From Escherichia phage BF17, in sequence record MW822008.1: a DNA stretch of 64,000 bases; one strand, written 5' to 3'. Numbering within the stretch: the stretch's first letter is position 1; every line of letters starts with the position of its first letter. The notes beneath the pieces are model-generated. The model made no database searches and had not been told where the DNA came from. It saw only the letters and a program-made list of their open reading frames with translations. The translations under genes were made by a program, and so were the position numbers. Shown here piece after piece: positions 585-19,254 of this stretch.

Positions 585-604
585 CCACCAGCACAAGCTG
601 GTGG
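585..604. other. Inverted Chi pair CCACCAGC-acaa-GCTGGTGG
   Basis: CCACCAGC 585-592 and GCTGGTGG 597-604 read directly. Confidence 0.6.
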
Positions 605-729
605 ATTCCCTCTAACAGTATTCAGTACTACATGATAGTCTTCATCCTCCTAGGGTAACATAGTGAGGGCTATGATGGCAGTACTGAATACTCCCTTTCA
701 AAAGATAGATCTATGGTATAGTACTGACG

Positions 730-920
730 GATTTTGGGCGTAGTTACCCTGGATGGATTTTGGACGTAGATATGTCTAGCCCTCCAGAAGTCTGGAAGTA
801 AAGATGGCTATCCATCTAGACGGCTAAACGGCTAGATTTCTGGATGGCTAGATGGCTAGACGTTTGGACGGCTAAACGGCTAGATGGTTACACGTCTGGA
901 AGTATAGACGGCTAAATCAA
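730..920. repeat. Iteron-like short direct repeats (GGCTA[GA]A[TC]GG x8; GTCTGGAAGTA x2; GGATTTTGGRCGTAG x2)
   Basis: direct repeats visible at 731-770 and 790-915; candidate origin or packaging region. Confidence 0.65.
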
Positions 921-1085
921 AATTTTATTTTGTTTTTCCAATAGTTCCCCTACCGCGTGGGGATAGTTTCCCCGCAGTATCTGGAGTTAGATTTTTCTGA
1001 ATCTGGAATCATTATCTTATAAACTGGGGGCAATGTCAACGACCTGGACGGATATTTTTAAAAATTTTTTCAGTACTGAATTTTG

Positions 1086-1330
1086 GGCGTAACTATGCAC
1101 CCGGTGGGCTTGAGTCTTTCTCGACTTGATGGAACTATTATACAGTACTGAAAAAATAAAGCAATACCCTGGAAGCAAAAAAGTTTTAATTAATTTGCTT
1201 GCTATCCTGGGCCGGACTATGGTACTATATTTCAGTACTGAGAAAGTGCGTTTACCTGCTAGGGTGCGGGAGTGTATCCTTTTTTTATATCTTGAATTTT
1301 GGGCGTAATTTCGCACCCTCTGGGGTTTCC
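1086..1330. promoter_or_regulatory. Promoter-like sites with conserved downstream CCCACCGGGTGCATA-type elements in both orientations
   Basis: minus-strand TATAAT-like with element at about 1093-1108; plus-strand AGGGTGCGGGAGTGTATCC 1261-1280 then T-run; minus element about 1300-1320. Confidence 0.45.
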
Positions 1331-1673
1331 GCTTTCTCGCGTCTATGTAGTAATTATACGCTTTTTCAGGATCAAGTCAATACCTAAAAACAAAATAATT
1401 GAAAATAATTTAACGCGTTTAAACGGCCCGTAAAGCCCTGGAATGATTGGAATGGTGCAAATGTATAGCTTATGTGTATTAATGCGTTAGAATGCGTCTG
1501 AGGCCGTTTTACGGGGTATGGGGATGATTTGGTGGATTGATTCAGTACTGAATAATAGTACTACTATATAGAAAGATAGTTCCCCTGGATGGTTGCAGTA
1601 CTGAATGATAGTACTGAATAATAGTTCCCCTATATAGAAAGAAAACTATTTTAAAAGTATTTGTAGAAAGTAC

Positions 1674-1701
1674 TTGCAAACTAAGTTTAACGGCGTATAA
1701 T
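1674..1701 (+). promoter_or_regulatory. sigma70 promoter (TTGCAA-16-TATAAT) with 5' stem-loop
   Basis: TTGCAA 1674-1679, TATAAT 1696-1701; hairpin AGCGGGAAcactTTCCCGCT about 1714-1733. Confidence 0.7.
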
Positions 1702-1756
1702 GTTTTACATCGAGAGCGGGAACACTTCCCGCTACATATTACGAGAGATTAAAACG

Positions 1757-2119
1757 ATGGCGACTCAAATCACTAAAATTATTGCTAACCTGGTTAACTT
1801 TCGCGACGAGATGAAAGATCTTCCGGCAGAAACGGTAAAAATTCACATTTCAGCTTATCGGGAACTTATTGCAATGTTACCGCTTAAGCGTGAACAATAC
1901 GCCGCGACCGTGATGCTTGATGCGATGATCCATAAGATGATCGCCAGTGATTTAACGATGGTTTATCAGTATATGGGCGAAAATTTCGCGGTGTATAGTA
2001 AACCAGTACCAGGAATGGAAAGTACAGAAGTATTACACGGTTTAAATTTAAAACAAGATGCATGGGATAATATGCCTCGTTTCCTGGTATGGGCTGACAG
2101 TGGCAAAATTTACGAATAA
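1757..2119 (+). CDS. hypothetical protein (120 aa)
   Basis: internal ATG 1757 of ORF 1700; track start lies in promoter -10; promoter + stem-loop upstream. Confidence 0.7.
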   Translation: MATQITKIIANLVNFRDEMKDLPAETVKIHISAYRELIAMLPLKREQYAATVMLDAMIHKMIASDLTMVYQYMGENFAVYSKPVPGMESTEVLHGLNLKQDAWDNMPRFLVWADSGKIYE

Positions 2120-2133
2120 GTTTAATAAAGTAC

Positions 2134-2161
2134 TTGCAAACTAAGTTTAAAAGCGTATAAT
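2134..2161 (+). promoter_or_regulatory. sigma70 promoter with 5' stem-loop
   Basis: TTGCAA 2134-2139, TATAAT 2156-2161, hairpin GTGGGGAAtagtTCCCCAC 2173-2191. Confidence 0.7.
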
Positions 2162-2213
2162 ACTTTACATCAGGTGGGGAATAGTTCCCCACTATAATTA
2201 AGAGATTAATTTT

Positions 2214-2447
2214 ATGAGTACTATTTTAACTGTTTCTCAATCCGTTGCACTGACTGACCTATTAAACGCTTTAAGCCGTTGCACTGAGGTTGGCTTGTTT
2301 GATGTGGTTGACGTTGCACCGGACGTTATTAATCATTTTTGTGATGCGATGGAAGAATGTAAGGAAGATGATAGCCGTATGATGGCGGTCGCCTTTGAGG
2401 AAGTACAGCCGGGTGAGATCAAAGGTTTACCAGTACTGAAAAAATAG
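2214..2447 (+). CDS. hypothetical protein (77 aa)
   Basis: ORF track; promoter + stem-loop upstream; weak AAGAG RBS. Confidence 0.7.
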   Translation: MSTILTVSQSVALTDLLNALSRCTEVGLFDVVDVAPDVINHFCDAMEECKEDDSRMMAVAFEEVQPGEIKGLPVLKK

Positions 2448-2450
2448 TAC

Positions 2451-2478
2451 TTGCAAACTAAGTTTAAAAGCGTATAAT
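2451..2478 (+). promoter_or_regulatory. sigma70 promoter with 5' stem-loop
   Basis: TTGCAA 2451-2456, TATAAT 2473-2478. Confidence 0.7.
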
Positions 2479-2529
2479 ACTTTCTATCAGGTGGTGAATA
2501 GTTCCCCACTATATAAGAGGATTAAAAAA

Positions 2530-2769
2530 ATGGCTAAATCAAAAATGTTCTTAGGTCACAAAAACAAAACTCATTGGAATGTAAGCCTTTGGATTAATAA
2601 CGATGAGTCATTGTACCGGTTGGCCCAGGACTTTATTAATGATAGCACTAATCGCAATGATGCGGCCCGTCATATGATGCTATTTTTAGAACAGACTGGA
2701 CAAGATAAAACACCGGACGGATTCAAATATAGCACTACTGCGATCCGTGCGGCGATGGTTGGAATGTAA
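2530..2769 (+). CDS. hypothetical protein (79 aa); paralog of 4570..4809
   Basis: ATG 2530 with RBS AAGAGGA; shares HKNKT(H/Q)WNVSLWINN...TPDGFKYSTTAIRAAMVGM with 4570 gene. Confidence 0.75.
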   Translation: MAKSKMFLGHKNKTHWNVSLWINNDESLYRLAQDFINDSTNRNDAARHMMLFLEQTGQDKTPDGFKYSTTAIRAAMVGM

Positions 2770-2782
2770 TAGAATTTATTTA

Positions 2783-2819
2783 AAGTACTATCATTTTTTT
2801 GCGATAGTACTTTATAATA
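2783..2819 (+). promoter_or_regulatory. Promoter with palindromic operator-like site AAGTACTATC...GATAGTACTT
   Basis: inverted repeat 2783-2792 / 2803-2812 followed by TATAAT 2814-2819. Confidence 0.55.
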
Positions 2820-2855
2820 GTGTTTTATTCATACACCAACGATAAGGGTAACAGC

Positions 2856-3122
2856 ATGAATATTAAGTATTTTGCGACGCGTGAACAAGCTCGGATCGCC
2901 GCACGCCAGGACGGGGCAACGTTTAAAGATATGGGAGCGGGATCGGCAAGTGGTGAACGTTGGGCCATTGTAAAGCGTAGTACCGCCAGATCATTACAGT
3001 ACTGGTTAGCGGCGTTAAAAAGTCCCGATAGTGTATCGCGTCGAGTGGTAGAAATAAAGCTCGACCGAAAGGGCAACCGCGTGACCGTGTACCGTACTAA
3101 AAAGATTGCAGTACTTGAATAA
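2856..3122 (+). CDS. hypothetical protein (88 aa); paralog of 15228..15623
   Basis: ATG 2856; shares FATREQARIAAR...FKDMG...RKGNRVTVY with 15228 gene. Confidence 0.75.
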   Translation: MNIKYFATREQARIAARQDGATFKDMGAGSASGERWAIVKRSTARSLQYWLAALKSPDSVSRRVVEIKLDRKGNRVTVYRTKKIAVLE

Positions 3123-3129
3123 AAAGTAC

Positions 3130-3157
3130 TTGCAAACTATGTTTAATGGCGTATAAT
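3130..3157 (+). promoter_or_regulatory. sigma70 promoter with 5' stem-loop
   Basis: TTGCAA 3130-3135, TATAAT 3152-3157, hairpin AGCGGGAAcactTCCCGCC. Confidence 0.7.
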
Positions 3158-3209
3158 GTTTTACATCGAGAGCGGGAACACTTCCCGCCTATAACCTGGA
3201 GTAATAAAA

Positions 3210-3440
3210 ATGACTAATATGTATATGACTGAAGTTAAAACCGTAAAAGATACTACCACGAATAAAACTACTTACTTACAGCGGATCTGCGGTGTATGGC
3301 AACGTATCAGCAAATCAAAGTACTTTAAATTAACATCATATGCAAACCGTTCGGATTCATTCAGTACTGAAATAAAAGGTAATAAAGTACACCAATACGG
3401 CACTTATTATTATTATAGCCTGGACGCGATTGCAGTATAA
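3210..3440 (+). CDS. hypothetical protein (76 aa)
   Basis: ORF track; RBS GGAG 3198-3201. Confidence 0.7.
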   Translation: MTNMYMTEVKTVKDTTTNKTTYLQRICGVWQRISKSKYFKLTSYANRSDSFSTEIKGNKVHQYGTYYYYSLDAIAV

Positions 3441-3470
3441 GCAGTTTACAAATCTTTACAATTGCCGGTA

Positions 3471-3550
3471 TTGACTTATTTTGTCAGTACTGGCATAATG
3501 TATTCATTGGCAGATAAGCCGTAGCCCATAGGGTGCGGGAGTGTATCTAT
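3471..3550 (+). promoter_or_regulatory. Promoter (TTGACT-17-CATAAT) plus conserved transcribed element GCCCATAGGGTGCGGGAGTGTATC
   Basis: TTGACT 3471-3476, CATAAT 3494-3499, element about 3524-3550; no ORF downstream. Confidence 0.55.
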
Positions 3551-3563
3551 AGAAAAAGTAGTT

Positions 3564-3643
3564 TATTACAGTTACAATTGTGCACCCGGTGGGTTAGCTG
3601 TTGTCATGGGGTATATTATGCCAGTACTTGATAATGCTGTCAA
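3564..3643 (-). promoter_or_regulatory. Convergent minus-strand promoter (TTGACA-17-CATAAT) plus conserved element ACCCACCGGGTGCACAA
   Basis: minus-strand -35 at 3638-3643, -10 at 3615-3620, element about 3575-3595; faces the 3471 promoter. Confidence 0.55.
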
Positions 3644-3688
3644 TACTTTTTTTACTATTCAGTACTGAAAACTATTTTTAAAAAGTAC

Positions 3689-3716
3689 TTGCAAACTATG
3701 TTTAAAGGCGTATAAT
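3689..3716 (+). promoter_or_regulatory. sigma70 promoter P1 upstream of structured leader
   Basis: TTGCAA 3689-3694, TATAAT 3711-3716. Confidence 0.65.
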
Positions 3717-3721
3717 GTTTT

Positions 3722-3806
3722 ACATCAGGACGGGGAACGAAATAAGTAACTCCCCGTTAAGTAGCCCAGGAGTAAGGCACACGAAAAACTCCCCTGATAA
3801 AATAGT
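3722..3806 (+). ncRNA. Conserved structured leader / candidate small RNA between tandem promoters (copy 1)
   Basis: about 85% identical to 14031-14114; hairpin CGGGGA...TCCCCG with compensatory change in copy 2. Confidence 0.4.
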
Positions 3807-3834
3807 TTGACAAATGTTTTTAAAAGCGTATAAT
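3807..3834 (+). promoter_or_regulatory. sigma70 promoter P2 (TTGACA-16-TATAAT)
   Basis: TTGACA 3807-3812, TATAAT 3829-3834. Confidence 0.65.
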
Positions 3835-3866
3835 ACTTACATCAACTACTGAATGAGGGTTACAAA

Positions 3867-4478
3867 ATGAAAACTATCACTACTACTACTTTCGTTATGG
3901 ATTTTTCTGAATTGAACGCAGAACAAAAAACGTCAGCTATCGAACTGGTTCGGGAACGTGAAAAAAACTTAAACGATGATTATTTTTCTGAAAGTGAAAT
4001 TGAATACTATAAAGAAACAGTACTACCGGAATATGGCATTAATGACGCTGATTTACGTTTCAGTGGCTTTTGGTCCCAGGGTGACGGTGCATCAATCAGT
4101 ACTGACCACGTTGACGCAGTGAAGTTTTTACGCAAGGTAAGAGCATTAACTAAGTATCGCTCAATCCGTCACTTGCTGAATGAAGATGATTTGGCGATGA
4201 GTGTAAAGCGTTCTCACTCCCACTACTCGCATGAAAACACTGTAAGCGGGTACATTGAATCGGCTTACACTGATTTAACCGCAAAACAAGAAACGTTAGT
4301 TAATGAGCTTGAGGAACTACTCACTGAAACTATTCGTGAATTATCCCGCAAGTTGTACCGTGATTTAGAGAATGCATATGAGGATCAATTCACTACTGAA
4401 AACATTACGGCACTGATTGAGGGTAACGAATATCAATTCAATGTTATTGATGGCGTAGTAGAATCAATCGAATATTAA
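3867..4478 (+). CDS. hypothetical acidic protein (203 aa)
   Basis: ORF track; RBS GAGGG; largest module-1 ORF after the kinase-like gene. Confidence 0.75.
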   Translation: MKTITTTTFVMDFSELNAEQKTSAIELVREREKNLNDDYFSESEIEYYKETVLPEYGINDADLRFSGFWSQGDGASISTDHVDAVKFLRKVRALTKYRSIRHLLNEDDLAMSVKRSHSHYSHENTVSGYIESAYTDLTAKQETLVNELEELLTETIRELSRKLYRDLENAYEDQFTTENITALIEGNEYQFNVIDGVVESIEY

Positions 4479-4491
4479 TTTAAAAAAGTAC

Positions 4492-4519
4492 TTGCAAACT
4501 AAGTTTAAAAGCGTATAAT
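4492..4519 (+). promoter_or_regulatory. sigma70 promoter with 5' stem-loop
   Basis: TTGCAA 4492-4497, TATAAT 4514-4519, hairpin GCGGGGAgtggTTCCCCGC. Confidence 0.7.
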
Positions 4520-4569
4520 ACTTTATATCGAGGCGGGGAGTGGTTCCCCGCTCAAACGAGGATTTAAAA

Positions 4570-4809
4570 ATGGCTAGTTCTAAAACTTACAACGGGCACA
4601 AAAACAAAACTCAATGGAATGTAAGCCTTTGGATTAATAACGGTGAGTCATTGTATCGGCTTGCACAAAGTTGTATCGCACAAAGTAGAACTAAAGATAT
4701 TGCAGCGGAATGTATGTACCGCAGATTAAAAGCCAACGGTACTACTACAACGCCGGACGGTTTTAAGTATAGCACTACTGCGATCCGTGCTGCAATGGTT
4801 GGAATGTAA
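4570..4809 (+). CDS. hypothetical protein (79 aa); paralog of 2530..2769
   Basis: ATG 4570, RBS GAGGA. Confidence 0.75.
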   Translation: MASSKTYNGHKNKTQWNVSLWINNGESLYRLAQSCIAQSRTKDIAAECMYRRLKANGTTTTPDGFKYSTTAIRAAMVGM

Positions 4810-4866
4810 TATTCAGTACTGAGATAATGGCGGGTAATAGTTCCCGCCTTTACTGAGGGTTATCTA

Positions 4867-5127
4867 ATGAGTAAAGTAATAAAGTACAATGTGTTAAGCA
4901 AATCATTGTCTATCAGTGAATGCACCGATGGTTTTTGGATGTACGATGAAACGCGTGGCATGAATTTAGCTATGCGTGCAAAAACTGCTGAGGCGGCGTA
5001 TATTCAAGCACTGGAATACTACCAGGAACGTTTAAAGGAAGTAGAAGAAGATTATAAAAGCCTCAAAGCGAAAGTAGATCATTTCGTCGGTCAATTCATC
5101 GAGGAAGACGACGACAAACAATATTGA
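4867..5127 (+). CDS. hypothetical protein (86 aa)
   Basis: ORF track; RBS GAGGG; upstream stem-loop GGCGGGtaatagttCCCGCC. Confidence 0.7.
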   Translation: MSKVIKYNVLSKSLSISECTDGFWMYDETRGMNLAMRAKTAEAAYIQALEYYQERLKEVEEDYKSLKAKVDHFVGQFIEEDDDKQY

Positions 5128-5135
5128 AAAAGTAC

Positions 5136-5163
5136 TTGCAATTAGTTTTCAGTACTGTATAAT
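5136..5163 (+). promoter_or_regulatory. sigma70 promoter with 5' stem-loop
   Basis: TTGCAA 5136-5141, TATAAT 5158-5163, hairpin GGGAGAAatggTTCTCCC. Confidence 0.7.
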
Positions 5164-5213
5164 GGTTTACATCAAAGGGAGAAATGGTTCTCCCTGGTAA
5201 TGAGGAAAATAAA

Positions 5214-5435
5214 ATGGCTAATATCACTACTCTTTCCCAACTGGAAGCACTGGTTAAATCTATGCGGGAACATGCCGACAAAATCGGCGTACAAGATCCA
5301 GCCGTTTGCTTCTGCGACGAATTGAATGATGATACCCTGGTAATAGCAGAAGTCCAGGACGTTTCTAACTATTCATCGCGTTACACTGGCGGCGTAGCAA
5401 ATAAAGGTGACTTCTGTTTATACCTTACAAAATAA
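5214..5435 (+). CDS. hypothetical protein (73 aa)
   Basis: ATG 5214, RBS GAGG 5202-5205. Confidence 0.75.
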   Translation: MANITTLSQLEALVKSMREHADKIGVQDPAVCFCDELNDDTLVIAEVQDVSNYSSRYTGGVANKGDFCLYLTK

Positions 5436-5438
5436 CAA

Positions 5439-5471
5439 CGCGGGGAGATAATAACTCCCCGTTACTTTTTC
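5439..5471 (+). terminator. Rho-independent terminator
   Basis: hairpin CGGGGAGataataaCTCCCCG followed by T-run. Confidence 0.7.
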
Positions 5472-5502
5472 AGTACTGAATCATTTAATAGACGGATCTA
5501 TG

Positions 5503-5573
5503 CACCCGGTGGGTTAGTGACTGTTTCGTCTTGATGTAGTAATTATGCCAGTACTGGATGCACTTGTCAACAA
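5503..5573 (-). promoter_or_regulatory. Minus-strand promoter (TTGACA-17-CATAAT) plus conserved ACCCACCGGGTGCATAG element
   Basis: -35 at 5568-5573, -10 at 5545-5550, element about 5503-5518; no minus-strand ORF. Confidence 0.5.
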
Positions 5574-5603
5574 CTATTTTTCAAATACTTTTTATTAAAA
5601 TAC

Positions 5604-5631
5604 TTGCAATTAGTTTTTAAACGCGTATAAT
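5604..5631 (+). promoter_or_regulatory. sigma70 promoter with 5' stem-loop
   Basis: TTGCAA 5604-5609, TATAAT 5626-5631. Confidence 0.7.
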
Positions 5632-5678
5632 GTTTTGCATAGGGGGAGCGGTTCCCCTGGTAACTAAGGAATAATAAA

Positions 5679-7286: not shown

Positions 7287-7318
7287 CTAGCCCACTTATA
7301 CAGTGGGCTTTTTTGTGT
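7287..7318 (+). terminator. Rho-independent terminator
   Basis: hairpin AGCCCACTtatacAGTGGGCT then TTTTTTG. Confidence 0.75.
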
Positions 7319-7324: not shown

Positions 7325-7440
7325 TTTACCAGGCCACCAGCACCGCCTAGAAACGATTCTAACGCATTAAACTGATTATCTGATGCATCACCCTAGCTGG
7401 TGGCGTTAAGGTCGTTAGAATGCGATTGAGTGCGTTTAAA
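7325..7440. repeat. Large imperfect palindrome with Chi octamers on both arms and TTAGAATGCG motifs
   Basis: CCACCAGC 7334-7341 and GCTGGTGG 7396-7403; ATTCTAACGCATT / CGTTAGAATGCG inside. Confidence 0.5.
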
Positions 7441-8390: not shown

Positions 8391-8714
8391 ATGGCTAAAA
8401 CTATCATTAACACCGTTTCCCTGGCTGCAATCCGTGCAATCAATGTTGACGGTAAACGTTGGACTGATTCATATGGCAATACTTATCATTCTTGTCATGT
8501 AAGCGTTGAACTGGATAACGGTTTGAATGATCTGGCGGTTGAATCATTTACTTATGGCTATGAAGATGCATATCAACAAACGGCGTTAGATCTCTTAAAG
8601 GAATCAGTAGACGGGCTTAATACTGATGAAACCTCCCTTACTCGTTTGTGCAATGATCTTAATATCCCGTTGCATTGTACTGTACAGAATGTTAAACGCA
8701 AAAAAGATCTTTAA
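8391..8714 (+). CDS. hypothetical protein (107 aa); paralog of 14809..15132
   Basis: shares RWTDS(Y/H)GNTYHSC(H/Y)VS and C-terminal RKKD(L/M) with 14809 gene. Confidence 0.75.
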   Translation: MAKTIINTVSLAAIRAINVDGKRWTDSYGNTYHSCHVSVELDNGLNDLAVESFTYGYEDAYQQTALDLLKESVDGLNTDETSLTRLCNDLNIPLHCTVQNVKRKKDL

Positions 8715-10259: not shown

Positions 10260-10267
10260 ATGAAAAA

Positions 10268-10350
10268 AGTGGTTGACTTCGGTCAGCCATTTTGCTATTA
10301 TATATTCATTGAGAGATAGCTCACTAGCCCACCGGGTGCATAAGTGTATC
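10268..10350 (+). promoter_or_regulatory. Composite module: terminator-like hairpin overlapping promoter (TTGACT-17-TATTAT) plus conserved element GCCCACCGGGTGCATAAGTGTATC
   Basis: hairpin 10271-10288 with T-run; TTGACT 10273-10278; TATTAT 10296-10301; element 10327-10350. Confidence 0.55.
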
Positions 10351-10394: not shown

Positions 10395-10422
10395 TTGCAA
10401 ACTATCTCAATTGGCGTATAAT
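10395..10422 (+). promoter_or_regulatory. sigma70 promoter with 5' stem-loop
   Basis: TTGCAA 10395-10400, TATAAT 10417-10422. Confidence 0.7.
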
Positions 10423-10473
10423 GTTTTACATCGAGAGGGGGAACGGTTTCCCCTGGTAATAAGGAAACGAATC

Positions 10474-10815
10474 ATGACTATCTCAATTGCTCAATCTAAC
10501 TTTGAAAATGAAATCATCGCCCAGGCACTGCGTTTAAATGATGGTCGGGCCGAAATTAATTACGGTTTCAATTCAGGCGGTTGTGAAAACTATCAGTACT
10601 TTGTAACTGCTGATGGCGGTGTCCTGGGCATCAATACCGTTATTGTAAACATTCAGAAAATTAATTTCAATGATCCAGACGATAGCCAGTTTTACATTGT
10701 AGGCGTAGACGTGAACTATGAGGATGACTCACTAACTGATGATCACACTGGCGAGAAGTTAGAAAGTGCATACGGTGAAGATGATTATCAGTCCGGTCCA
10801 GAAGATTTTGAATAA
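10474..10815 (+). CDS. hypothetical protein (113 aa), acidic C-terminus
   Basis: ATG 10474 with RBS AAGGAA. Confidence 0.75.
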   Translation: MTISIAQSNFENEIIAQALRLNDGRAEINYGFNSGGCENYQYFVTADGGVLGINTVIVNIQKINFNDPDDSQFYIVGVDVNYEDDSLTDDHTGEKLESAYGEDDYQSGPEDFE

Positions 10816-11631: not shown

Positions 11632-11665
11632 AGCCCACTGGTTAACGCTGGTGGGCTTTAATCCT
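11632..11665 (+). terminator. Terminator-like hairpin containing a Chi octamer
   Basis: AGCCCAC...GTGGGCT stem; GCTGGTGG 11647-11654; weak T-run. Confidence 0.45.
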
Positions 11666-12259: not shown

Positions 12260-12517
12260 ATGGCTGTAGGATTCGCGAAAGATGGGGCCGAACAAGACGA
12301 GATTAACGCAGTGATTCAGGCCGCCGTTAACCACGCTAGAAAGCAAATTAACGCACAAATAGAATCACTGATACATTGCCTCGACTGCGGCGATATAATC
12401 CCTGAGAAACGACGCCAGGCCGTTAAGGGATGTAAGTACTGCATAACTTGCCAGGAGGATCATGATAGTACTTTTAAACGTCCCCCGCGTAATTGTTGGC
12501 ATAGATCTATGAGATAA
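12260..12517 (+). CDS. TraR/DksA-family C4 zinc-finger protein (85 aa)
   Basis: CLDCGDIIPEKRRQAVKGCKYCITCQ = C-x2-C-x13-C-x2-C-x2-C arrangement with IPE..RR typical of TraR; RBS GAGG. Confidence 0.75.
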   Translation: MAVGFAKDGAEQDEINAVIQAAVNHARKQINAQIESLIHCLDCGDIIPEKRRQAVKGCKYCITCQEDHDSTFKRPPRNCWHRSMR

Positions 12518-12552: not shown

Positions 12553-12598
12553 ACTTACATCAAGGGGAAACATCTTCCCCTACTAAGAGGAAATGAAA

Positions 12599-12787
12599 AT
12601 GGAAAACTTATCAAGTATTTTAGTACAAGATGATTTCGGTAATCCTGGAAGTGCTATCATTGTTCGGGGTAATAAAGCAACATTTGTTATTGCTGGTGGA
12701 CCTGTACAGCGTAGCATTAAAAACAATGCCGTTACTATTAATAATGTACGCTATCGCTTAGATAAAGAATTGATTCATAAACTGTAA
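12599..12787 (+). CDS. hypothetical protein (62 aa)
   Basis: ATG 12599 with RBS AGAGG (track start 12593 too close to RBS). Confidence 0.65.
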   Translation: MENLSSILVQDDFGNPGSAIIVRGNKATFVIAGGPVQRSIKNNAVTINNVRYRLDKELIHKL

Positions 12788-13860: not shown

Positions 13861-13873
13861 AAATATTTGAAAA

Positions 13874-13952
13874 AGGGATTGACTCCGGTCAGTCCCTTTG
13901 CTATTATATACGCATAGAAACAAATCAGCCCACAGGGTGCATAAATGTATCT
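13874..13952 (+). promoter_or_regulatory. Composite module: bidirectional terminator-like hairpin overlapping promoter plus conserved element AGCCCACAGGGTGCATAAATGTATC
   Basis: hairpin GGGATTGACtccgGTCAGTCCC 13875-13896, TTGACT 13878-13883, element 13927-13952; Chi GCTGGTGG 13960-13967 just downstream. Confidence 0.55.
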
Positions 13953-13998
13953 ATTGTTTGCTGGTGGCTAGTACTGAAAACTATTTTTAAAAAAGTAC

Positions 13999-14026: not shown

Positions 14027-14030
14027 GTTT

Positions 14031-14114
14031 TACATCAGGACGGGGAACGAAACAAGTAACCCCGTTAAGTAGTCCAGGAGTAAGACATAAGAAAACCTCC
14101 CCTGATAAAATAGT
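14031..14114 (+). ncRNA. Conserved structured leader / candidate small RNA (copy 2)
   Basis: about 85% identical to 3722-3806; stem CGGGG...CCCCG one base pair shorter on both arms. Confidence 0.4.
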
Positions 14115-14142
14115 TTGACAATAGAAAGTAAACGAGTATAAT
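14115..14142 (+). promoter_or_regulatory. sigma70 promoter P2 (TTGACA-16-TATAAT)
   Basis: TTGACA 14115-14120, TATAAT 14137-14142. Confidence 0.65.
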
Positions 14143-14175
14143 ACTTACATCAACCACTGATAAGGAAACATTAAA

Positions 14176-14451
14176 ATGCGGATTCTACTGACAGCTAACG
14201 AAATCGAACAAGTACTGACTACTAACCTGGAAGACTGGAAACGTGAAGCAGATATCCAGGCGGTTCAACTGCTTAACGATAAGTTAACGCCGGATGACTT
14301 AAGCAAGATTGTAGATCCTCAATTCTACGAAGATATCCACGACACCGCGTTAAGCGTCGAGGATGTACTAGATAAGCACTACATTGATATTGATTTGCAG
14401 GTTTACGGTCGTAAAAACTTTATCACTATTCACGACATTTATAATAATTAA
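14176..14451 (+). CDS. hypothetical acidic protein (91 aa)
   Basis: ORF track; RBS AAGGAAA. Confidence 0.75.
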   Translation: MRILLTANEIEQVLTTNLEDWKREADIQAVQLLNDKLTPDDLSKIVDPQFYEDIHDTALSVEDVLDKHYIDIDLQVYGRKNFITIHDIYNN

Positions 14452-14454
14452 GTA

Positions 14455-14482
14455 TTGACAAAGTATCTTAGTACTGTATAAT
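14455..14482 (+). promoter_or_regulatory. sigma70 promoter with 5' stem-loop
   Basis: TTGACA 14455-14460, TATAAT 14477-14482, hairpin GGGGGAAtggTTCCCCTCC. Confidence 0.7.
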
Positions 14483-14537
14483 AGTTTACATCGAGAGGGG
14501 GAATGGTTCCCCTCCTAACAAAGAGAGAGAAATAAAA

Positions 14538-14720
14538 ATGGCTAAATGCACTATCTGCAAGAAAGAAATAGTATTAGTTCCAAGTGCCCGTGAACGTGCC
14601 GCTCGGTTCGGTGGCAAAGCGTCAGACTATACAAAAATGTTTACTACCCATGCAGCTTGCCAGGTAGCAAAACGTTCACAAGAAAGCGTAGAATTAATGC
14701 GTAAACTTTCCAAAAAATAA
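14538..14720 (+). CDS. small Cys-containing basic protein (60 aa; CTIC...ACQ)
   Basis: ORF track; RBS AGAGAGAGAAA. Confidence 0.7.
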   Translation: MAKCTICKKEIVLVPSARERAARFGGKASDYTKMFTTHAACQVAKRSQESVELMRKLSKK

Positions 14721-14723
14721 GTA

Positions 14724-14751
14724 TTGACAAAGTATCTTAGTACTGTATAAT
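14724..14751 (+). promoter_or_regulatory. sigma70 promoter with 5' stem-loop
   Basis: TTGACA 14724-14729, TATAAT 14746-14751. Confidence 0.7.
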
Positions 14752-14808
14752 AGTTTACATCAAGTGAGGGGAAACGGTTCCCCTCCTAACAAAGAGAGAG
14801 AAATAAAA

Positions 14809-15132
14809 ATGGCTATGATCCTTGCCCAGAAAGTAGAACTGAAAATTGTAACCTCCTTTGACATTAAAGTTAATCGGTGGACTGATTCACACGGCAATAC
14901 TTACCACTCTTGCTACGTGTCCGCGTTAATTGGCGACCGCTGGGAAGACTTGGGACATGAAACCTTTACTTACGGTTACGGTACACAAGGAGAATACACG
15001 GGCTTGGAGATCATTAAAGAAACCGTTATAGGTTTCAACCCGAAAGAAAAAGTTATTCACCGCATCGAAAAAGAGATTAACAAAGAAATAACAGTTCGCT
15101 ACTACGATGTAAAACGTAAGAAAGACATGTAA
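14809..15132 (+). CDS. hypothetical protein (107 aa); paralog of 8391..8714
   Basis: ATG 14809; track start 14764 lies in leader. Confidence 0.75.
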   Translation: MAMILAQKVELKIVTSFDIKVNRWTDSHGNTYHSCYVSALIGDRWEDLGHETFTYGYGTQGEYTGLEIIKETVIGFNPKEKVIHRIEKEINKEITVRYYDVKRKKDM

Positions 15133-15146
15133 TAGAATCCATTTAA

Positions 15147-15183
15147 AGTACTATTTGACATTGCCCAGATAGTACTTTATAAT
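15147..15183 (+). promoter_or_regulatory. Promoter TTGACA-17-TATAAT enclosed by palindrome AAGTACTAT...ATAGTACTT
   Basis: TTGACA 15155-15160, TATAAT 15178-15183; same architecture as 2783-2819. Confidence 0.65.
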
Positions 15184-15227
15184 AGACTCTAACTTGTAGT
15201 ACTAACTCAACTAATAGGATGTATACC

Positions 15228-15623
15228 ATGATTACTAAATTCTACGCTACCCGTGAAGCTGCCCGTATTGTTGCACGCGAGGAAGGAGCAGCATTTAAAG
15301 ACATGGGCAAAGATGCACCGAAAGGTCAACGCTGGGCCGTACAGTTCAAAGAAATCTCTGATATTGTGAATTCACCTGAGCCAGTACTAACAGCAGCAGA
15401 ACTAAAACGAGCGGATTTACTGGCGGCAGTACTTAACGCACAAGATGAATTTATCGCTGATTCTGATATCAAAGTACAGACAAACCATACCGCTTGGACT
15501 CACGCGGATCACCTGGCAAACCTTAAGCGTCCAAGTGAACTGGTTCGCAACCAGAAAGAGATCCGACACGACCGTAAGGGTAATCGTGTAACAGTATACA
15601 GTAAACGCCGCCAGGTTATCTAA
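15228..15623 (+). CDS. hypothetical protein (131 aa); paralog of 2856..3122
   Basis: ATG 15228 with RBS AGGA 15215-15218. Confidence 0.75.
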   Translation: MITKFYATREAARIVAREEGAAFKDMGKDAPKGQRWAVQFKEISDIVNSPEPVLTAAELKRADLLAAVLNAQDEFIADSDIKVQTNHTAWTHADHLANLKRPSELVRNQKEIRHDRKGNRVTVYSKRRQVI

Positions 15624-15643
15624 TAACTTGCAGTACTAACAAC

Positions 15644-15671
15644 ACGGCGGGATCAGTTCCCGCCTTTTTTA
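15644..15671 (+). terminator. Rho-independent terminator
   Basis: hairpin GGCGGGatcagttCCCGCC then TTTTTT. Confidence 0.75.
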
Positions 15672-15685
15672 TAGGATAAACTAAA

Positions 15686-15940
15686 ATGATTAAGGTACAA
15701 CTATCTAAAGATAATATCTTGCGGGTACACTATAAAGCACCACAGAGAATCATCACAAAGGCCGTACAGCTTGCTAATGAGTTTATTAATGGTAACCTAT
15801 TACCAAGGAAGTTAAGCAACGGAAAACTGCGTGTAATCGATGTAGACACTAACAACAGAATAGTAATTGAGAACACAGGAAAGATAAACCTATATGAACA
15901 CCAACAATATAATAAGAAAATAAAACTAATATCACGTTGA
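15686..15940 (+). CDS. hypothetical basic protein (84 aa)
   Basis: ORF track; RBS AGGA. Confidence 0.65.
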   Translation: MIKVQLSKDNILRVHYKAPQRIITKAVQLANEFINGNLLPRKLSNGKLRVIDVDTNNRIVIENTGKINLYEHQQYNKKIKLISR

Positions 15941-15965
15941 CAGTACTCAATTGTTTTAGTATTAT
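15937..15965 (+). promoter_or_regulatory. sigma70 promoter (TTGACA-17-TATTAT); duplicated cassette with 16213-16241
   Basis: TTGACA 15937-15942, TATTAT 15960-15965; leader TACACATACCAACACGGG shared. Confidence 0.6.
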
Positions 15966-15993
15966 GTACACATACCAACACGGGAGAAACAAA

Positions 15994-16212
15994 ATGAAAT
16001 TATCTAAAATCGAAAAGAAAACTATTGATGAAGCAGTTAAGCACGGTTATACCTTTCGTAATGATTCACATTTTACCAATTTTCAACAAGGCCAAAGGAC
16101 TATTAAAAAACTAATTGACAAAGGTTTATTAGTTAAAGTAGATAACGGTAACGGCATTGAGTATCAGCCAACCCAAGACGCATTATCTTTAAAGAAATAT
16201 GCAATTATCTAA
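15994..16212 (+). CDS. hypothetical protein (72 aa)
   Basis: ATG 15994; track start 15937 is the TTG of the -35. Confidence 0.7.
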   Translation: MKLSKIEKKTIDEAVKHGYTFRNDSHFTNFQQGQRTIKKLIDKGLLVKVDNGNGIEYQPTQDALSLKKYAII

Positions 16213-16241
16213 TTGACAGTACTCAAATGTTTTAGTACTAT
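16213..16241 (+). promoter_or_regulatory. sigma70 promoter (TTGACA-17-TACTAT)
   Basis: TTGACA 16213-16218, TACTAT 16236-16241. Confidence 0.6.
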
Positions 16242-16269
16242 ATGTACATACCAACACGGGGAAAACAAA

Positions 16270-16512
16270 ATGATTACTTTAGAAAAACGTATCAAAGAAA
16301 CTACATCGCTGGTGGAACTGTTAACAGTACTGAAATGCCGTACTACTCGGTTTAGTACACCGGACTTTATTAATATGGTTGATGTTAACGGTCGTTATCG
16401 CATTGCAGTAGAACATGGAACAGCGAAAGTATTCAGTACTAAAAACACTAAGGAAGTGATTCACGCGGTTAGTGTGAAAAAAGTGGTTGCCATTGATAGT
16501 AAAGTACTGTAA
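16270..16512 (+). CDS. hypothetical protein (80 aa)
   Basis: ATG 16270, RBS GGGGAAAA. Confidence 0.7.
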   Translation: MITLEKRIKETTSLVELLTVLKCRTTRFSTPDFINMVDVNGRYRIAVEHGTAKVFSTKNTKEVIHAVSVKKVVAIDSKVL

Positions 16513-16543
16513 GATAGTTTCATTAACTCAAGGAGAACATGCA

Positions 16544-17128
16544 ATGCGTAATTATACTAAATTCATCCGTACCCTGTCAGAAATGGAAACCAACAAAGAG
16601 ATCCTTTCAGCTTGTCGGTTAGCTGGTCTGGAGATCATCGGTGCGGGTTCTTCCCGTATTGTATTCGCTTTAAATGATCGGTTAGTGATTAAGGTCGCCA
16701 ATTGTGATGCGGGTGTAGAACAAAATGAAACTGAATGTAAGGTATGGAATTTTTTAGACTATGACCGCCCTCAATTGAAACAGTACTTTGCAAAGGTGCA
16801 TATGCATTTATGCGATCCTGATAATATGTTTATCGTTATGGATCGGTTGAGTACTGCAAGCAAAGGCAGTGTAAAGCACGTTAACGCGTGCAACGAATTA
16901 AAGTACAATATTAAACGTAATGCCATTGAACGCCAGCACCGCTTTGCTGATGCACTACAACACGTCGATGATACATTATCAACACTAACGATAAGAGATA
17001 TCAGAAAACAGAATATCGGCCAGGATCGTAATGGACTTATTAAAGTACTTGATTACGGTTTAACCCGCAATATCTGGAATCAGTACTATAAAAAGCGTGA
17101 TGTGGCAGCAAGTAAAGTAACACGATAA
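16544..17128 (+). CDS. putative small atypical protein kinase (194 aa) with Hanks-like catalytic motifs
   Basis: IIGAGSSRIVF (Gly-rich loop), VIKV (Lys), IRDIRKQNIG (cf. HRDxKxxN), VLDYGL (cf. DFG); ATG 16544 with RBS AAGGAG. Confidence 0.55.
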   Translation: MRNYTKFIRTLSEMETNKEILSACRLAGLEIIGAGSSRIVFALNDRLVIKVANCDAGVEQNETECKVWNFLDYDRPQLKQYFAKVHMHLCDPDNMFIVMDRLSTASKGSVKHVNACNELKYNIKRNAIERQHRFADALQHVDDTLSTLTIRDIRKQNIGQDRNGLIKVLDYGLTRNIWNQYYKKRDVAASKVTR

Positions 17129-17141
17129 AAAAGATTAAAAA

Positions 17142-17225
17142 AGGGATTGATTTCGGTCAGTCCCTTTGCTATTATATATTCATTGAGAGATAGCTCACTG
17201 ACCCACAGGGTGCATAAATGTATCT
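17142..17225 (+). promoter_or_regulatory. Composite module: terminator-like hairpin overlapping promoter plus conserved element ACCCACAGGGTGCATAAATGTATC
   Basis: hairpin GGGATTGAtttcgGTCAGTCCC 17143-17165; element 17201-17225. Confidence 0.55.
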
Positions 17226-17268
17226 ATTATATAAGTATTCAGTACTGAAAACTATTTTTAAAAAGTAC

Positions 17269-17296
17269 TTGCATTGTACTTAGAATCAAGTATAAT
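17269..17296 (+). promoter_or_regulatory. sigma70 promoter with 5' stem-loop
   Basis: TTGCAT 17269-17274, TATAAT 17291-17296. Confidence 0.7.
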
Positions 17297-17351
17297 GTTT
17301 TATATCGAGAGGGGGGGAACGGTTCTCCCTCAAAGAATAAGGAATAAAATC

Positions 17352-17573
17352 ATGACTACAATGACTTGCATTTACGCTTCCAATCTTCTGAATGATGCGG
17401 CCTTTAATGTTGATTCAGAATATCAATGTTATCGGGATGAAAATAAAAAAGTTTTTGTAGTTGATAATAATGGTTTCCATATTGAAATACAATCCGGCTT
17501 CACTGGTGTTGATGGTAAATCAGTATGGGGCGTACAGGATGATAACGGTACATATCATTTTAAACGTAATTAA
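17352..17573 (+). CDS. hypothetical protein (73 aa)
   Basis: ATG 17352, RBS AAGGAA. Confidence 0.75.
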   Translation: MTTMTCIYASNLLNDAAFNVDSEYQCYRDENKKVFVVDNNGFHIEIQSGFTGVDGKSVWGVQDDNGTYHFKRN

Positions 17574-17576
17574 GTA

Positions 17577-17604
17577 TTGACAAAGTATCTTAGTACTGTA
17601 TAAT
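17577..17604 (+). promoter_or_regulatory. sigma70 promoter with 5' stem-loop
   Basis: TTGACA 17577-17582, TATAAT 17599-17604. Confidence 0.7.
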
Positions 17605-17657
17605 AGTTTACATCAAGGGGAGAATAGTTCTCCCCGATACTAAAAGGAAACAAAATT

Positions 17658-17930
17658 ATGTCCAGCTACTCCGCTACTATGATCATTAAAGATATGAACG
17701 GTAATCCTACTTCCGCTGGTGGATCATTTGGAAACATTAATTTAGATGGTCGGTTATCCATGCAATCAGCCATCGATGCAGCGAAAGAAGTTTTTAAGAA
17801 TGAATGCACTGTAAGCAAGCTGGATTATATGGGATTCGCTATCGAGAAAACTAATCGTTTTGTGAACTACAAAAATCCACTGATGATTGATACTAACCTG
17901 AAAGCTAACGAAGTGGAATACTTATTATGA
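17658..17930 (+). CDS. hypothetical protein (90 aa)
   Basis: ORF track; RBS AAGGAAA. Confidence 0.75.
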   Translation: MSSYSATMIIKDMNGNPTSAGGSFGNINLDGRLSMQSAIDAAKEVFKNECTVSKLDYMGFAIEKTNRFVNYKNPLMIDTNLKANEVEYLL

Positions 17931-18118
17931 CAGTTGAAGAAGTTAAAAAAGTACTGGCAGTACTACGCTATCATAATCATTGCAAGGTGAAGAATGATCC
18001 TGATTATGTTGATTCATCCCTGGAGGAAGACACATTAAACGCAATAAGCCATATGCAAACATTAGCAAAGCGTATGACCGAAAAGAATAGACCGGACTAT
18101 ATCGGAAATAAAATTTAA
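17927..18118 (+). CDS. hypothetical protein (63 aa)
   Basis: ATGA start/stop overlap with 17658 gene. Confidence 0.6.
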   Translation: MTVEEVKKVLAVLRYHNHCKVKNDPDYVDSSLEEDTLNAISHMQTLAKRMTEKNRPDYIGNKI

Positions 18119-18125
18119 AAAGTAC

Positions 18126-18153
18126 TTGCATTGTAGTTAGATTAACGTATAAT
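18126..18153 (+). promoter_or_regulatory. sigma70 promoter with 5' stem-loop
   Basis: TTGCAT 18126-18131, TATAAT 18148-18153, hairpin GCGGGGGAAtagtTCTCCCGCC. Confidence 0.7.
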
Positions 18154-18204
18154 GTTTTACATAGAGCGGGGGAATAGTTCTCCCGCCAGTCCAGGAGATA
18201 CACC

Positions 18205-18468
18205 ATGAACACTATCGAAATCACTATCAATGCACACGTATACGACAACGTAGTACTGCAAACTACTATGACCGCTAACGATACCAGTACTTTGCGGAAT
18301 ACTGTTATTAGTGCCGTATGTGCCGCTATCGGTGATGTCGCCCTGGAAAATGCAAAACACGTAAACGATGGTTTCACTATGTGCAAACGTGATAACGCAA
18401 AACATATCATCGTGGAAGGTTACGGCGGTGTAGAATTTAATGTTTATATGAAAAAAGTACTTGCATAA
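18205..18468 (+). CDS. hypothetical protein (87 aa)
   Basis: ORF track; RBS CAGGAG; 3' end overlaps next promoter -35. Confidence 0.7.
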   Translation: MNTIEITINAHVYDNVVLQTTMTANDTSTLRNTVISAVCAAIGDVALENAKHVNDGFTMCKRDNAKHIIVEGYGGVEFNVYMKKVLA

Positions 18469-18488
18469 TAACTAAAACAAAGTATAAT
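18461..18488 (+). promoter_or_regulatory. sigma70 promoter with 5' stem-loop
   Basis: TTGCAT 18461-18466, TATAAT 18483-18488. Confidence 0.7.
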
Positions 18489-18535
18489 GTTTTGCATAGG
18501 GGGAGATGTCCTCCCCCACTAAAAGGAGTAATAAA

Positions 18536-18760
18536 ATGGCTAACTTTGATGAACTGATGCGGGAAGTAGCTAACCTGGCAGAAGAGAAAAAATCATTCGA
18601 TTCTATCTATAACACCTCTTACCGTGATTCAGTACTGGCATGTAACCAGGATCAAAAAGATGAACTAATCGCCACCTATCATGAAGCATGGAAGTACTAC
18701 CGACAATGGGAGAAAGAAGAAAGAGAGTCTACCATTGACGGCCTCAATAATCTAATCTAA
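18536..18760 (+). CDS. hypothetical protein (75 aa)
   Basis: ATG 18536, RBS AAAGGAG. Confidence 0.75.
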   Translation: MANFDELMREVANLAEEKKSFDSIYNTSYRDSVLACNQDQKDELIATYHEAWKYYRQWEKEERESTIDGLNNLI

Positions 18761-18773
18761 AAGTTTTATTTCA

Positions 18774-18808
18774 GTACTATTGACATAGCTTGATAGTACT
18801 GATGTAAT
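18774..18808 (+). promoter_or_regulatory. Palindromic promoter cassette (copy 5, diverged -10)
   Basis: AGTACTAT-TGACATAGCTTG-ATAGTACT; TTGACA 18780-18785. Confidence 0.6.
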
Positions 18809-18836
18809 AACTTTACTAACTACAAGGGGAAACATC

Positions 18837-19094
18837 ATGGAACAATTCACACAATATCGGGTAAATCCTCAAGCTATGGCCTACGTAGAAGACCATAAAA
18901 CGTTACCAGTACTGCAACCAGTTAAAGGCCATATCTATCGTGCAATGTCGTGGAGTACGGCCCAGGATGGCTATAAAACCGTAGCCGTTGGTATGTACTG
19001 CGGTAATGGTGAATGGTTTGATCCAAATAATCCGGTAGCCATTGACAGTACTGAAAAAATGAAATGGGCCGACTACATCGAAGATATTTCATAA
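18837..19094 (+). CDS. hypothetical protein (85 aa)
   Basis: ORF track; RBS AAGGGGAAA. Confidence 0.7.
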   Translation: MEQFTQYRVNPQAMAYVEDHKTLPVLQPVKGHIYRAMSWSTAQDGYKTVAVGMYCGNGEWFDPNNPVAIDSTEKMKWADYIEDIS

Positions 19095-19107
19095 AAAGAA
19101 TAAAAAA

Positions 19108-19187
19108 AAGGAGTTGACTTCGGTCCGCTCCTTTAGTACTATATACGCATAGAAACAAATCAGCCCACAGGGTGCATAAGTGTATCC
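19108..19187 (+). promoter_or_regulatory. Composite module: terminator-like hairpin overlapping promoter plus conserved element AGCCCACAGGGTGCATAAGTGTATC
   Basis: hairpin about 19109-19133; element 19162-19187; Chi GCTGGTGG 19222-19229 downstream. Confidence 0.55.
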
Positions 19188-19254
19188 AAAATATATAGTT
19201 AATAACGGTGAGTAACTATCTGCTGGTGGAACTAAAACTATTAATAAAAAAGTA

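Follow-up and report, generated by a model that had tools for sequence, protein, structure and literature searches.

Chi sites in the direct terminal repeat of Escherichia phage BF17 and related jumbo phages: a candidate RecBCD-control array

E. coli and Salmonella use the octamer GCTGGTGG as Chi (PMC12315714; PMC3784561), and among the phages that package their DNA from concatemers it is the T5-like and P1-like ones in which Chi is most strongly over-represented (PMC3784561). In phage P1, 50 Chi sites are concentrated within or close to the terminal redundancy; the growth of P1 depends on RecBCD, and a circularisation driven by Chi has been proposed for it (10.1101/2021.07.08.451572). Here, we describe an array of Chi sites in Escherichia phage BF17 (sequence record MW822008.1), of which we analysed a stretch of 64,000 nucleotides (nt), called the window in the following. 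The array is found in the first 20,590 bp of the window, which are probably the left copy of a direct terminal repeat (DTR) of the genome.

There are 11 exact matches to GCTGGTGG in the window, eight on the + strand and three on the - strand (Table 1). All ten coordinates listed in an earlier note, which had been made from the letters of this DNA, are exact matches, and one further + strand site, at 16308-16315, had been missed. The expectation for the whole window, summed over both strands, is 0.42, and the maximum in 100 dinucleotide-preserving shuffles was 2; the over-representation that the note had claimed is therefore even stronger than stated. The note had also proposed a count against a Markov model. 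When models of order 0-4 are fitted on 1-20600, the expected number of sites is 0.11-0.33 on the + strand and 0.04-0.11 on the - strand, which puts the octamer far above background, with ~25-60 fold more sites in the repeat than expected in either orientation (Poisson P of ~1e-10 to 1e-13 for the + strand and ~1e-3 for the - strand). The expectation of the order-5 model is higher (1.6), this model being inflated by the Chi sites themselves. Within the repeat there is one Chi per 2.1 kb, about twice the density found in E. coli K-12 (1 per 4.6 kb). The 24 one-mismatch variants of the octamer are not in excess (3 observed versus 4.2 expected on the + strand, 0 versus 2.3 on the - strand). The octamer is the Chi sequence of E. 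coli, and it is strongly over-represented in the repeat, by ~50 fold.

The first 20 kb of the window are 94-96% identical, in a mosaic pattern, to jumbo phages of Escherichia and Salmonella that belong to the genus Asteriusvirus (PBECO4/121Q/slurp01 group, with genomes of ~350 kb). Since these closest relatives are phages of Escherichia and Salmonella, the host is most probably enterobacterial, as the earlier note had thought, with a RecBCD that recognises GCTGGTGG. The first 28 nt of the window (AGTAGGCAGAGGAAGTCTGCCGTACTTT) are the same as those from base 1 onward of the phages fEgEco12 and vB_Ec-M-J, and homology to the DTR ends of these two phages places the right boundary of the repeat at 20590 (between ...GGGCGGGTAACCT and T). 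From the shared terminus and the mapped repeat end we infer that the genome physically begins, at its left, with base 1 of the window, 1-20590 being the left copy of the DTR. In vB_Ec-M-J (OQ718158.1), a feature called 'Direct Terminal Repeats' is annotated at 1-21525, collinear with the window, and the copies at the two ends of this wholly assembled record, 21,525 bp each, are identical. By this comparison, the right-hand copy of BF17 would lie beyond the window.

For fEgEco12, a DTR of 20,993 bp was found with PhageTerm and confirmed by restriction digests (PMC13070987). According to the same paper, termini have been mapped in only five genomes of the group, of which four have repeats of ~20 kb and the fifth (UE-S1, 8.3 kb) is doubted. 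The DNA of fEgEco12 is cut by restriction enzymes as predicted in silico and is not heavily modified (PMC13070987), so that base modification is unlikely to hide Chi. The paper makes no mention of Chi or RecBCD.

The repeat is the immediate-early region, with about 46 small open reading frames (ORFs) on the + strand, nearly each of which has its own strong sigma-70-type promoter; ten of the promoters are perfect TTGACA-N16/17-TATAAT. The GC content is 38.4% within the repeat versus 32.3% in the next 43 kb, with a sharp step at 20590/20591. The gene organisation shifts at the same point: small genes, each with a promoter of its own, give way to small ORFs that are tightly packed and overlap.

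Next, we asked how strictly the Chi sites are confined to the repeat. Ten of the 11 sites of the window lie in 1-20590 (8 + and 2 -), and the remaining 43.4 kb hold no + site and a single - site. The earlier note had seen the carrier of the sites in an "early module"; this has to be corrected, the carrier being the 20,590-bp DTR, at whose boundary the cluster stops. The repeat of vB_Ec-M-J (21,525 bp) has 9 + and 2 - sites, and its 335.5 kb of unique DNA have 14 + and 9 -, that is, 0.51 versus 0.069 Chi per kb. At the rate of the unique region, 1.5 sites would be expected in this repeat instead of 11 (Poisson P = 4.7e-7), and the best 21.5-kb window outside the repeat has 5. In six Asteriusvirus genomes, including that of a Salmonella phage, all Chi sites of the fetched stretches lie downstream of the left-terminus motif; four of these stretches extend to the repeat-end motif, and there all of the sites also lie before that motif. 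We did not find any Chi in the unique DNA of the right end, 1.8-2.3 kb of which precede the terminus motif in three collapsed Asteriusvirus records, nor in the 2.5-10 kb fetched past the repeat end in the stretches that reach it.

The same confinement is seen outside the genus. fENko-Kae01, a phage of Klebsiella aerogenes that is not assigned to any genus and has only ~28% average nucleotide identity to Asteriusvirus, has 12 + and 2 - sites in its repeat of 19,736 bp, which was mapped by PhageTerm, and 1 + and 1 - in the next 30 kb. In CBB, a Pectobacterium phage of the genus Mimasvirus, the numbers are 7 + and 2 - in a repeat of 22,456 bp, and 2 + and 1 - in the next 27.5 kb. Out of the 14 Chi sites in the fENko-Kae01 repeat, 11 have no homologous counterpart in Asteriusvirus, and therefore the arrays have largely been built independently. 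Chi enrichment confined to the repeat recurs in three lineages, at positions that are mostly non-homologous.

Some Chi sites are found elsewhere in these genomes. The isolated site of the window at 60094 adjoins a C7/G7 hairpin (cccctgcgggggg) and lies at the end of a small Cys-rich ORF (59925-60170). There is a - strand Chi in vB_Ec-M-J at 59909, which is a similar map position. vB_Ec-M-J also has a weaker, secondary group of + strand Chi sites at 213674, 219631, 227948, 229941, 230115 and 235745 (213.7-235.7 kb). This group spans the genes for DNA polymerase, terminase, SSB, UvsX, UvsY, helicase and primase, and it supplies the best non-repeat window mentioned above.

We compared the ten octamers of the repeat and their flanks with five relatives. 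Only 1 of 376 aligned positions in the octamers is substituted (0.27%), versus 412 of 9430 positions in the flanks of ±100 nt (4.4%; Fisher P = 2.4e-6, a test that is descriptive, as the compared genomes are related). The octamers are thus ~16 times better conserved than their flanks. For example, the octamer at 13960 is unchanged in vB_Ec-M-J despite differences at 23 of 211 flanking positions, and that at 16308 is unchanged in relatives whose flanks diverge by 10%. The Chi at 7334 is kept in 4 of 5 relatives, with slurp01 reading CCACTAGC, and the Chi at 11647 has a homologous, Chi-bearing site in fENko-Kae01 at 19354. In the repeat of vB_Ec-M-J, 7 of 11 Chi sites are intergenic, versus 35% of the sequence (P = 0.05). 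These data show that the exact octamers are under purifying selection in the repeat.

Could the sites be a neutral by-product of base composition, of codon usage, of recently acquired host DNA or of an amplified repeat family that happens to carry the octamer? The higher GC content of the repeat, its G-rich + strand and a strand ratio that follows composition (see below) would fit such an origin, as would the fact that the repeat is full of repeated regulatory elements. On the other hand, the expectation stays below 0.4 sites even when the models are fitted on the repeat, codon usage fails because most of the sites are intergenic, and recently acquired E. coli DNA would have only half the observed density. 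An amplified family should show in the flanks, which share no motif. Together with the conservation of the octamers and the lack of a one-mismatch excess, these observations lead us to reject composition, codon usage, host-derived DNA and hitch-hiking on a repeat family, and the enrichment has in addition arisen independently in other lineages. A neutral origin is largely refuted, and we give it hardly any credence. We had also considered Chi as a part of a longer repeated element; apart from the unshared flanks, the remaining most frequent octamers come from families of promoters, terminators and CAGTACTG, and this candidate was dropped.

The two leftmost sites form a palindrome, CCACCAGC-ACAA-GCTGGTGG, which offers Chi in both orientations at a distance of ~0.6 kb from the left end. 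Across 5 genomes (four Asteriusvirus and fENko-Kae01), neither arm shows any change, and the loop varies (ACAA, TTGT or TTAA); in fENko-Kae01 the flanks have diverged as well. The palindrome region is present in 35 Asteriusvirus records, at least 9 of which carry the region 500-640 twice, these being assemblies of 366-384 kb in which the two repeat copies have not been collapsed. As DNA, the palindrome would form an 8-bp hairpin (-9.9 kcal/mol, z -3.6) with no T-run after it. The loop (593-596 in the window) reads ACAA in most genomes and its reverse complement TTGT in fEgEco12 (586-589), as the flip of a hairpin would yield.

Potentially, the octamer could have a phage function of its own that coincides with Chi and has nothing to do with RecBCD, such as a site for a phage or terminase protein, a hairpin in DNA or RNA, or a terminator. 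The stable hairpin at 585-604 lies downstream of a perfect promoter (366-393) that has no ORF behind it, the region of the palindrome is labelled 'terminator' in the record of phage G17, and the intergenic preference in vB_Ec-M-J points in the same direction. However, only this single pair of sites forms a hairpin, and it lacks the T-run; the flanks of the other eight sites are unrelated to each other, and three of these sites are coding. A protein site or a stem would partly tolerate one-mismatch variants, which are not enriched, and it is the exact 8-mer of the host that recurs, at non-homologous positions, in phages whose hosts belong to three enterobacterial genera. We therefore consider a separate function of this kind very improbable.

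The earlier note had described five of its + strand sites as intergenic, which holds for its own list (597, 7396, 11647, 13960 and 19222), with 12692, 16308 and 17715 lying within ORFs. Its association of Chi with terminator-like hairpins is weak and only partly right: it concerns 585 and 597 (arms of a hairpin that lacks a T-run), 7334 (near a terminator) and 11647 (overlap with a stem), and the remaining sites lie outside predicted terminators. Terminators as a general setting of the Chi sites were rejected, as a consensus scan gives only one canonical terminator near a Chi (7289-7309). A search of IMG/VR viral contigs for CCACCAGC-N3-8-GCTGGTGG gave at least 120 loci over many unrelated contigs, and the pattern was discarded as too unspecific.

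Table 1. Coordinates of the putative left repeat copy, the Chi palindrome and the Chi sites in the window
Feature	Positions	Strand	Remarks
Direct terminal repeat, left copy	1-20590	+	assigned from left-terminus identity plus homology-placed right boundary
Chi palindrome	585-604	.	Chi in both orientations, near the left end
Chi	585-592	-	left arm of the Chi palindrome; readable by RecBCD entering at the left terminus
Chi	597-604	+	right arm of the Chi palindrome; readable from the right
Chi	7334-7341	-	intergenic, 25 nt past the canonical terminator; active orientation for left-to-right RecBCD
Chi	7396-7403	+	intergenic; active for right-to-left RecBCD; kept in 5/5 relatives
Chi	11647-11654	+	intergenic; overlaps 3' arm of hairpin AGCCCAC...GTGGGCT
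Chi	12692-12699	+	within small ORF 12593-12787
Chi	13960-13967	+	intergenic, upstream of an early promoter
Chi	16308-16315	+	within ORF 16213-16512, read ..tcG CTG GTG Gaa
Chi	17715-17722	+	within ORF 17658-17930
Chi	19222-19229	+	intergenic; the -35 box at 19255 follows 26 nt downstream
Chi	60094-60101	-	isolated, outside repeat and cluster; end of a small ORF or intergenic gap

We wanted to know whether the orientation of the sites carries information. The + strand is G-rich. The strand ratio in the repeat is 8:2, and models of order 1-3 predict a + fraction of 0.71-0.82. When the three lineages are pooled (27 + and 6 -, an observed + fraction of 0.82), the strand count does not differ from the compositional expectation either (P = 0.13-0.63). 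Since strand composition predicts it, the ratio of 8:2 is no evidence of direction in itself, and we reject strand bias as a proof of direction. The earlier note had derived a "defined direction" from this bias; its count was real, but the ratio is compositional, and directional evidence comes from the position of the sites instead.

In all three lineages, + sites are displaced to the right within the repeat, with a mean relative position of 0.58-0.69, and - sites to the left (0.03-0.65, mean 0.26). The mean distance of a site from the terminus at which it would be active is 0.36 of the repeat length (P = 0.003 versus uniform placement). The result holds if shared sites are left out (P = 0.005) and if orientation labels are permuted (P = 0.004), and local composition does not predict this coupling between position and orientation. 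Judged from these placements, the Chi sites of either orientation are shifted toward the genome end at which an entering RecBCD would be predicted to read them. The first active Chi from the left terminus is at 585, within a non-coding leader of 1.7 kb, and the second is at 7334. The distance from the Chi at 19222 to the right repeat boundary is 1,361 bp, the same as in vB_Ec-M-J and fEgEco12, and in the right-hand repeat copy this site would be the first active one for RecBCD entering the right genome end. In fENko-Kae01, the first active Chi sites are 484 bp and 375 bp from the left and right termini.

How would such an array work? We think it rather probable that the Chi sites are a cis-acting RecBCD-control array, selected within the DTR, that protects the ends and promotes recombination of repeat with repeat. 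A role in the protection of linear DNA or in the stimulation of recombination had been proposed in the earlier note and remains the best explanation, for which selection on the octamers and confinement to the repeat are the evidence. Beyond the selection of Chi in the repeat, the mechanism is inferred, and we picture it as follows. The packaged genome would be linear with the same repeat at both ends, and RecBCD would load on each physical end after injection. The left end is probably the first to enter, by analogy with T5 and T7. RecBCD moving rightward from there would meet an active Chi after 585 bp of non-coding leader and then the one at 7334; RecBCD moving leftward from the right end would meet one after 1.36 kb (19222) and then seven more. 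A single Chi is recognised with an efficiency of 20-40%. If this is assumed for each site, the eight sites that face right would give ~85-98% recognition before RecBCD leaves the repeat, and the two left-end sites ~36-64%.

At Chi, RecBCD would stop degrading the 3'-ended strand and load RecA on it. Being itself repeat sequence, the 3' tail could then invade the second copy of the repeat, either in its own genome or in a sister genome. Such an invasion would preserve the ends and give circles or concatemers, or it would prime recombination-dependent replication. For a tail that ends outside the repeat, the opposite end of the genome offers no partner, which may be the reason why the array stops at the repeat boundary. 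The RecBCD-RecA step would precede expression of the UvsX/UvsY system of the phage. As has been argued for T5 (10.1101/866236), the end that enters first is exposed at a time when no phage protein has yet been made, and a cis-acting DNA signal would solve this problem of timing.

Several observations weigh against a RecBCD-control array that joins the repeats. The strand ratio of 4:1 is accounted for by composition alone. CBB has no terminal palindrome, and its first left-active site is at 3514. The recombination genes of the phage lie beyond the window, so they were searched in the relative vB_Ec-M-J, where we found a match to the RecA/UvsX family with 54 bits (cutoff 27) and one to UvsY with 26.6 (cutoff 22.8), as well as Mre11-like and Rad50-like proteins. 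Since these phages have recombination genes of their own, whereas in lambdoid phages high Chi accompanies their lack, a need for RecBCD-RecA is not obvious. With only two active sites, protection of the left end would be incomplete. A virion protein may also cap the ends, or there may be an unrecognised inhibitor of RecBCD. Our scan for inhibitors and protectors covered the 46 ORFs of the repeat, among which PHROGs gave no known RecBCD inhibitor or end protector; this is a weak negative, as ~87% of the PHROG families have no known function. Finally, the literature on Asteriusvirus yielded no experiment that links growth to RecBCD or RecA.

Some of these points would suit a role of the array as a mere shield or decoy. 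In that case, the sites would attenuate or inactivate RecBCD, limit the RecBCD-dependent capture of spacers for CRISPR from the injected ends and protect the immediate-early genes, and recombination between the repeats would be left to UvsX/UvsY, or the genome would never circularise. RecBCD is disabled after acting at Chi, and in E. coli Chi bounds spacer acquisition. A recombinase, a mediator and an Mre11/Rad50-like nuclease are encoded by the phage lineage itself, and the first left-active Chi is in the leader, ahead of the first gene at 1700. The early exposure of the first-entering end of a terminal-repeat phage, as argued for T5 (10.1101/866236), speaks for protection as well. However, pure protection leaves it unexplained that the array stops exactly at the repeat boundary, as a shield of the whole genome should extend inward, and in vB_Ec-M-J the 33 kb that adjoin the right copy on its inner side have no + site. 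Moreover, 8 of the 10 sites face the right end, which is not adjacent to unique early genes. We regard a shield without a role in recombination as unlikely, though clearly less so than a function unrelated to RecBCD, and prefer an array that both protects the ends and promotes recombination between the repeats.

A bolder version of the preferred reading can be put forward tentatively, and we would not bet on it: the ~20-kb repeats of jumbo phages of the RaK2/Asteriusvirus type may have evolved as dedicated RecBCD-handling cassettes, in which the conserved two-way palindrome, ~0.5 kb from the end that enters first, and the graded array, which faces the opposite end, program RecBCD-RecA to join the repeats, circularising the 350-kb genome or starting its replication within the first minutes. 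If this were true, the host pathway would be an obligatory first step even in a phage with a complete T4-like recombination system, and a Chi cluster could predict the physical termini of unassembled jumbo phage genomes.

The leader and the repeat hold a number of further elements. The leader (1-1699) lies at the genome terminus and has a hairpin at the very end (2-21), the promoter at 366-393 mentioned above (TTGACA-N16-TATAAT) and iteron-like tandem repeats (GGCTAGAYG) at 806-914, whose units are 8, 24 and 32 nt long. A role in packaging or replication, or as a non-coding RNA, is conceivable for these elements; an Rfam scan of 1-21000 at the gathering threshold gave no matches. The palindrome CAGTACTG has 63 copies in the window (e.g. 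at 340, 380, 530, 556, 679, 1071 ... 63517), of which 36 are in the repeat, versus ~1.4 expected there, and its core AGTACT has 252 copies in the 64 kb. It is often found between or beside promoter hexamers and could be the binding site of a regulator or a promoter element. Two of the copies, both conserved in fENko-Kae01, pair as a hairpin (530-563) a short way upstream of the Chi palindrome. A hairpin of 28 nt, AAAGGGATTGACTCCGGTCAGTCCCTTT, followed by GCTATTATAT, occurs three times (10266-10293, 13872-13899 and 17140-17167), with a -35-like TTGAC inside the stem and a -10-like TATTAT after it.

Among the small early genes of the repeat there are paralogous pairs (2491-2769 and 4540-4809; 8391-8714 and 14764-15132; 2820-3122 and 15219-15623), which fall in phrog_871, phrog_6246 and phrog_8127, two each. 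The PHROGs scan of the 46 ORFs gave one clear functional match, a DksA-like zinc-finger protein at 12260-12517. The ORF 10411-10815 weakly matches (35 bits) a family that bears the label DNA ligase, and all other matches, which take in almost all of the 46 ORFs, are to families of unknown function.

We found no report in the literature on Chi or RecBCD in Asteriusvirus, in jumbo phages or in their terminal repeats; a match in a paper on a Citrobacter podophage was merely a string in a table of ribosome binding sites. Terminally clustered Chi sites in phages are already known, and an array in the terminal repeat of jumbo phages is apparently unreported. Distinctive features are the strict confinement to a fixed repeat of 20 kb, the conserved two-way palindrome near the left end and the presence of a phage-encoded recombination system. 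In principle this may not surprise specialists, yet the pattern is clean and conserved across genera. It bears on the question of how a linear genome of 350 kb survives RecBCD and becomes a replicating form in widespread coliphages that are candidates for therapy, and a signal for a host enzyme that is confined to the repeat makes for a concrete, testable hypothesis. Furthermore, most published genomes of the group are without mapped termini (PMC13070987), and the Chi cluster, when combined with the motifs at the terminus and the boundary, is a simple marker with which the terminal repeat can be located in collapsed assemblies. A word of caution may be of general use: the strand bias of a G-rich motif must be weighed against strand composition.

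How does the array compare with known systems? On the E. coli chromosome, the same octamer is read by the same enzyme, and its predominant orientation is likewise on the G-rich strand. However, Chi sites of E. coli lie mostly in ORFs, helped by codon usage (CTG-GTG), and are spread genome-wide, whereas those of the array are mostly intergenic, twice as dense and restricted to ~6% of the genome.

T5 is, like the jumbo phages, a virulent coliphage with a long exact terminal repeat, which carries pre-early genes transcribed by the host and enters first. We found only two Chi sites in its first 45 kb, both on the + strand and both inside the 10.2-kb repeat (8127 and 8689); in the right-hand copy, they would sit ~1.5-2 kb from the right terminus. 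T5 differs in having 2 Chi sites in the repeat versus 10, no terminal palindrome, no left-active site in the repeat and an unrelated gene content.

The lambdoid phages of the LLS class also have terminally clustered Chi, oriented for RecBCD at the exposed end, and are interpreted as recruiting host recombination for growth (PMC12315714; PMC3784561). As in other phages with terminally clustered Chi, the density at the packaged ends of the jumbo phages is at least that of the host. The LLS phages have cohesive ends and a single entry end, which explains their orientation bias of 20:3, whereas in the jumbo phages both ends would be served. Furthermore, the LLS class is defined by the absence of phage recombination genes, unlike the jumbo phages, where vB_Ec-M-J has UvsX and UvsY.

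P1 is the closest functional analogue of the jumbo-phage array. In P1 and its relatives (P7, D6) as in the jumbo phages, the density of Chi exceeds that of E. coli, both orientations are present and the sites lie at the ends of the packaged DNA or in terminal repeats. The proposed role is also the same, namely recombination by RecBCD, Chi and RecA between the terminal repeats of injected linear DNA. However, P1 is a temperate phage that packages by the headful (pac) mechanism, so that its redundancy is variable and permuted over ~5-10 kb, whereas the repeat of BF17 appears to be fixed at 20.6 kb with exact termini. P1 is without a recombinase of the UvsX type, and its dependence on RecBCD has been shown experimentally; Asteriusvirus phages are virulent 350-kb myoviruses with recombination genes of their own, for which a role of RecBCD is suggested by sequence. 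Our results would thus extend the idea developed for P1 and the LLS phages to virulent jumbo phages that carry their own recombinases.

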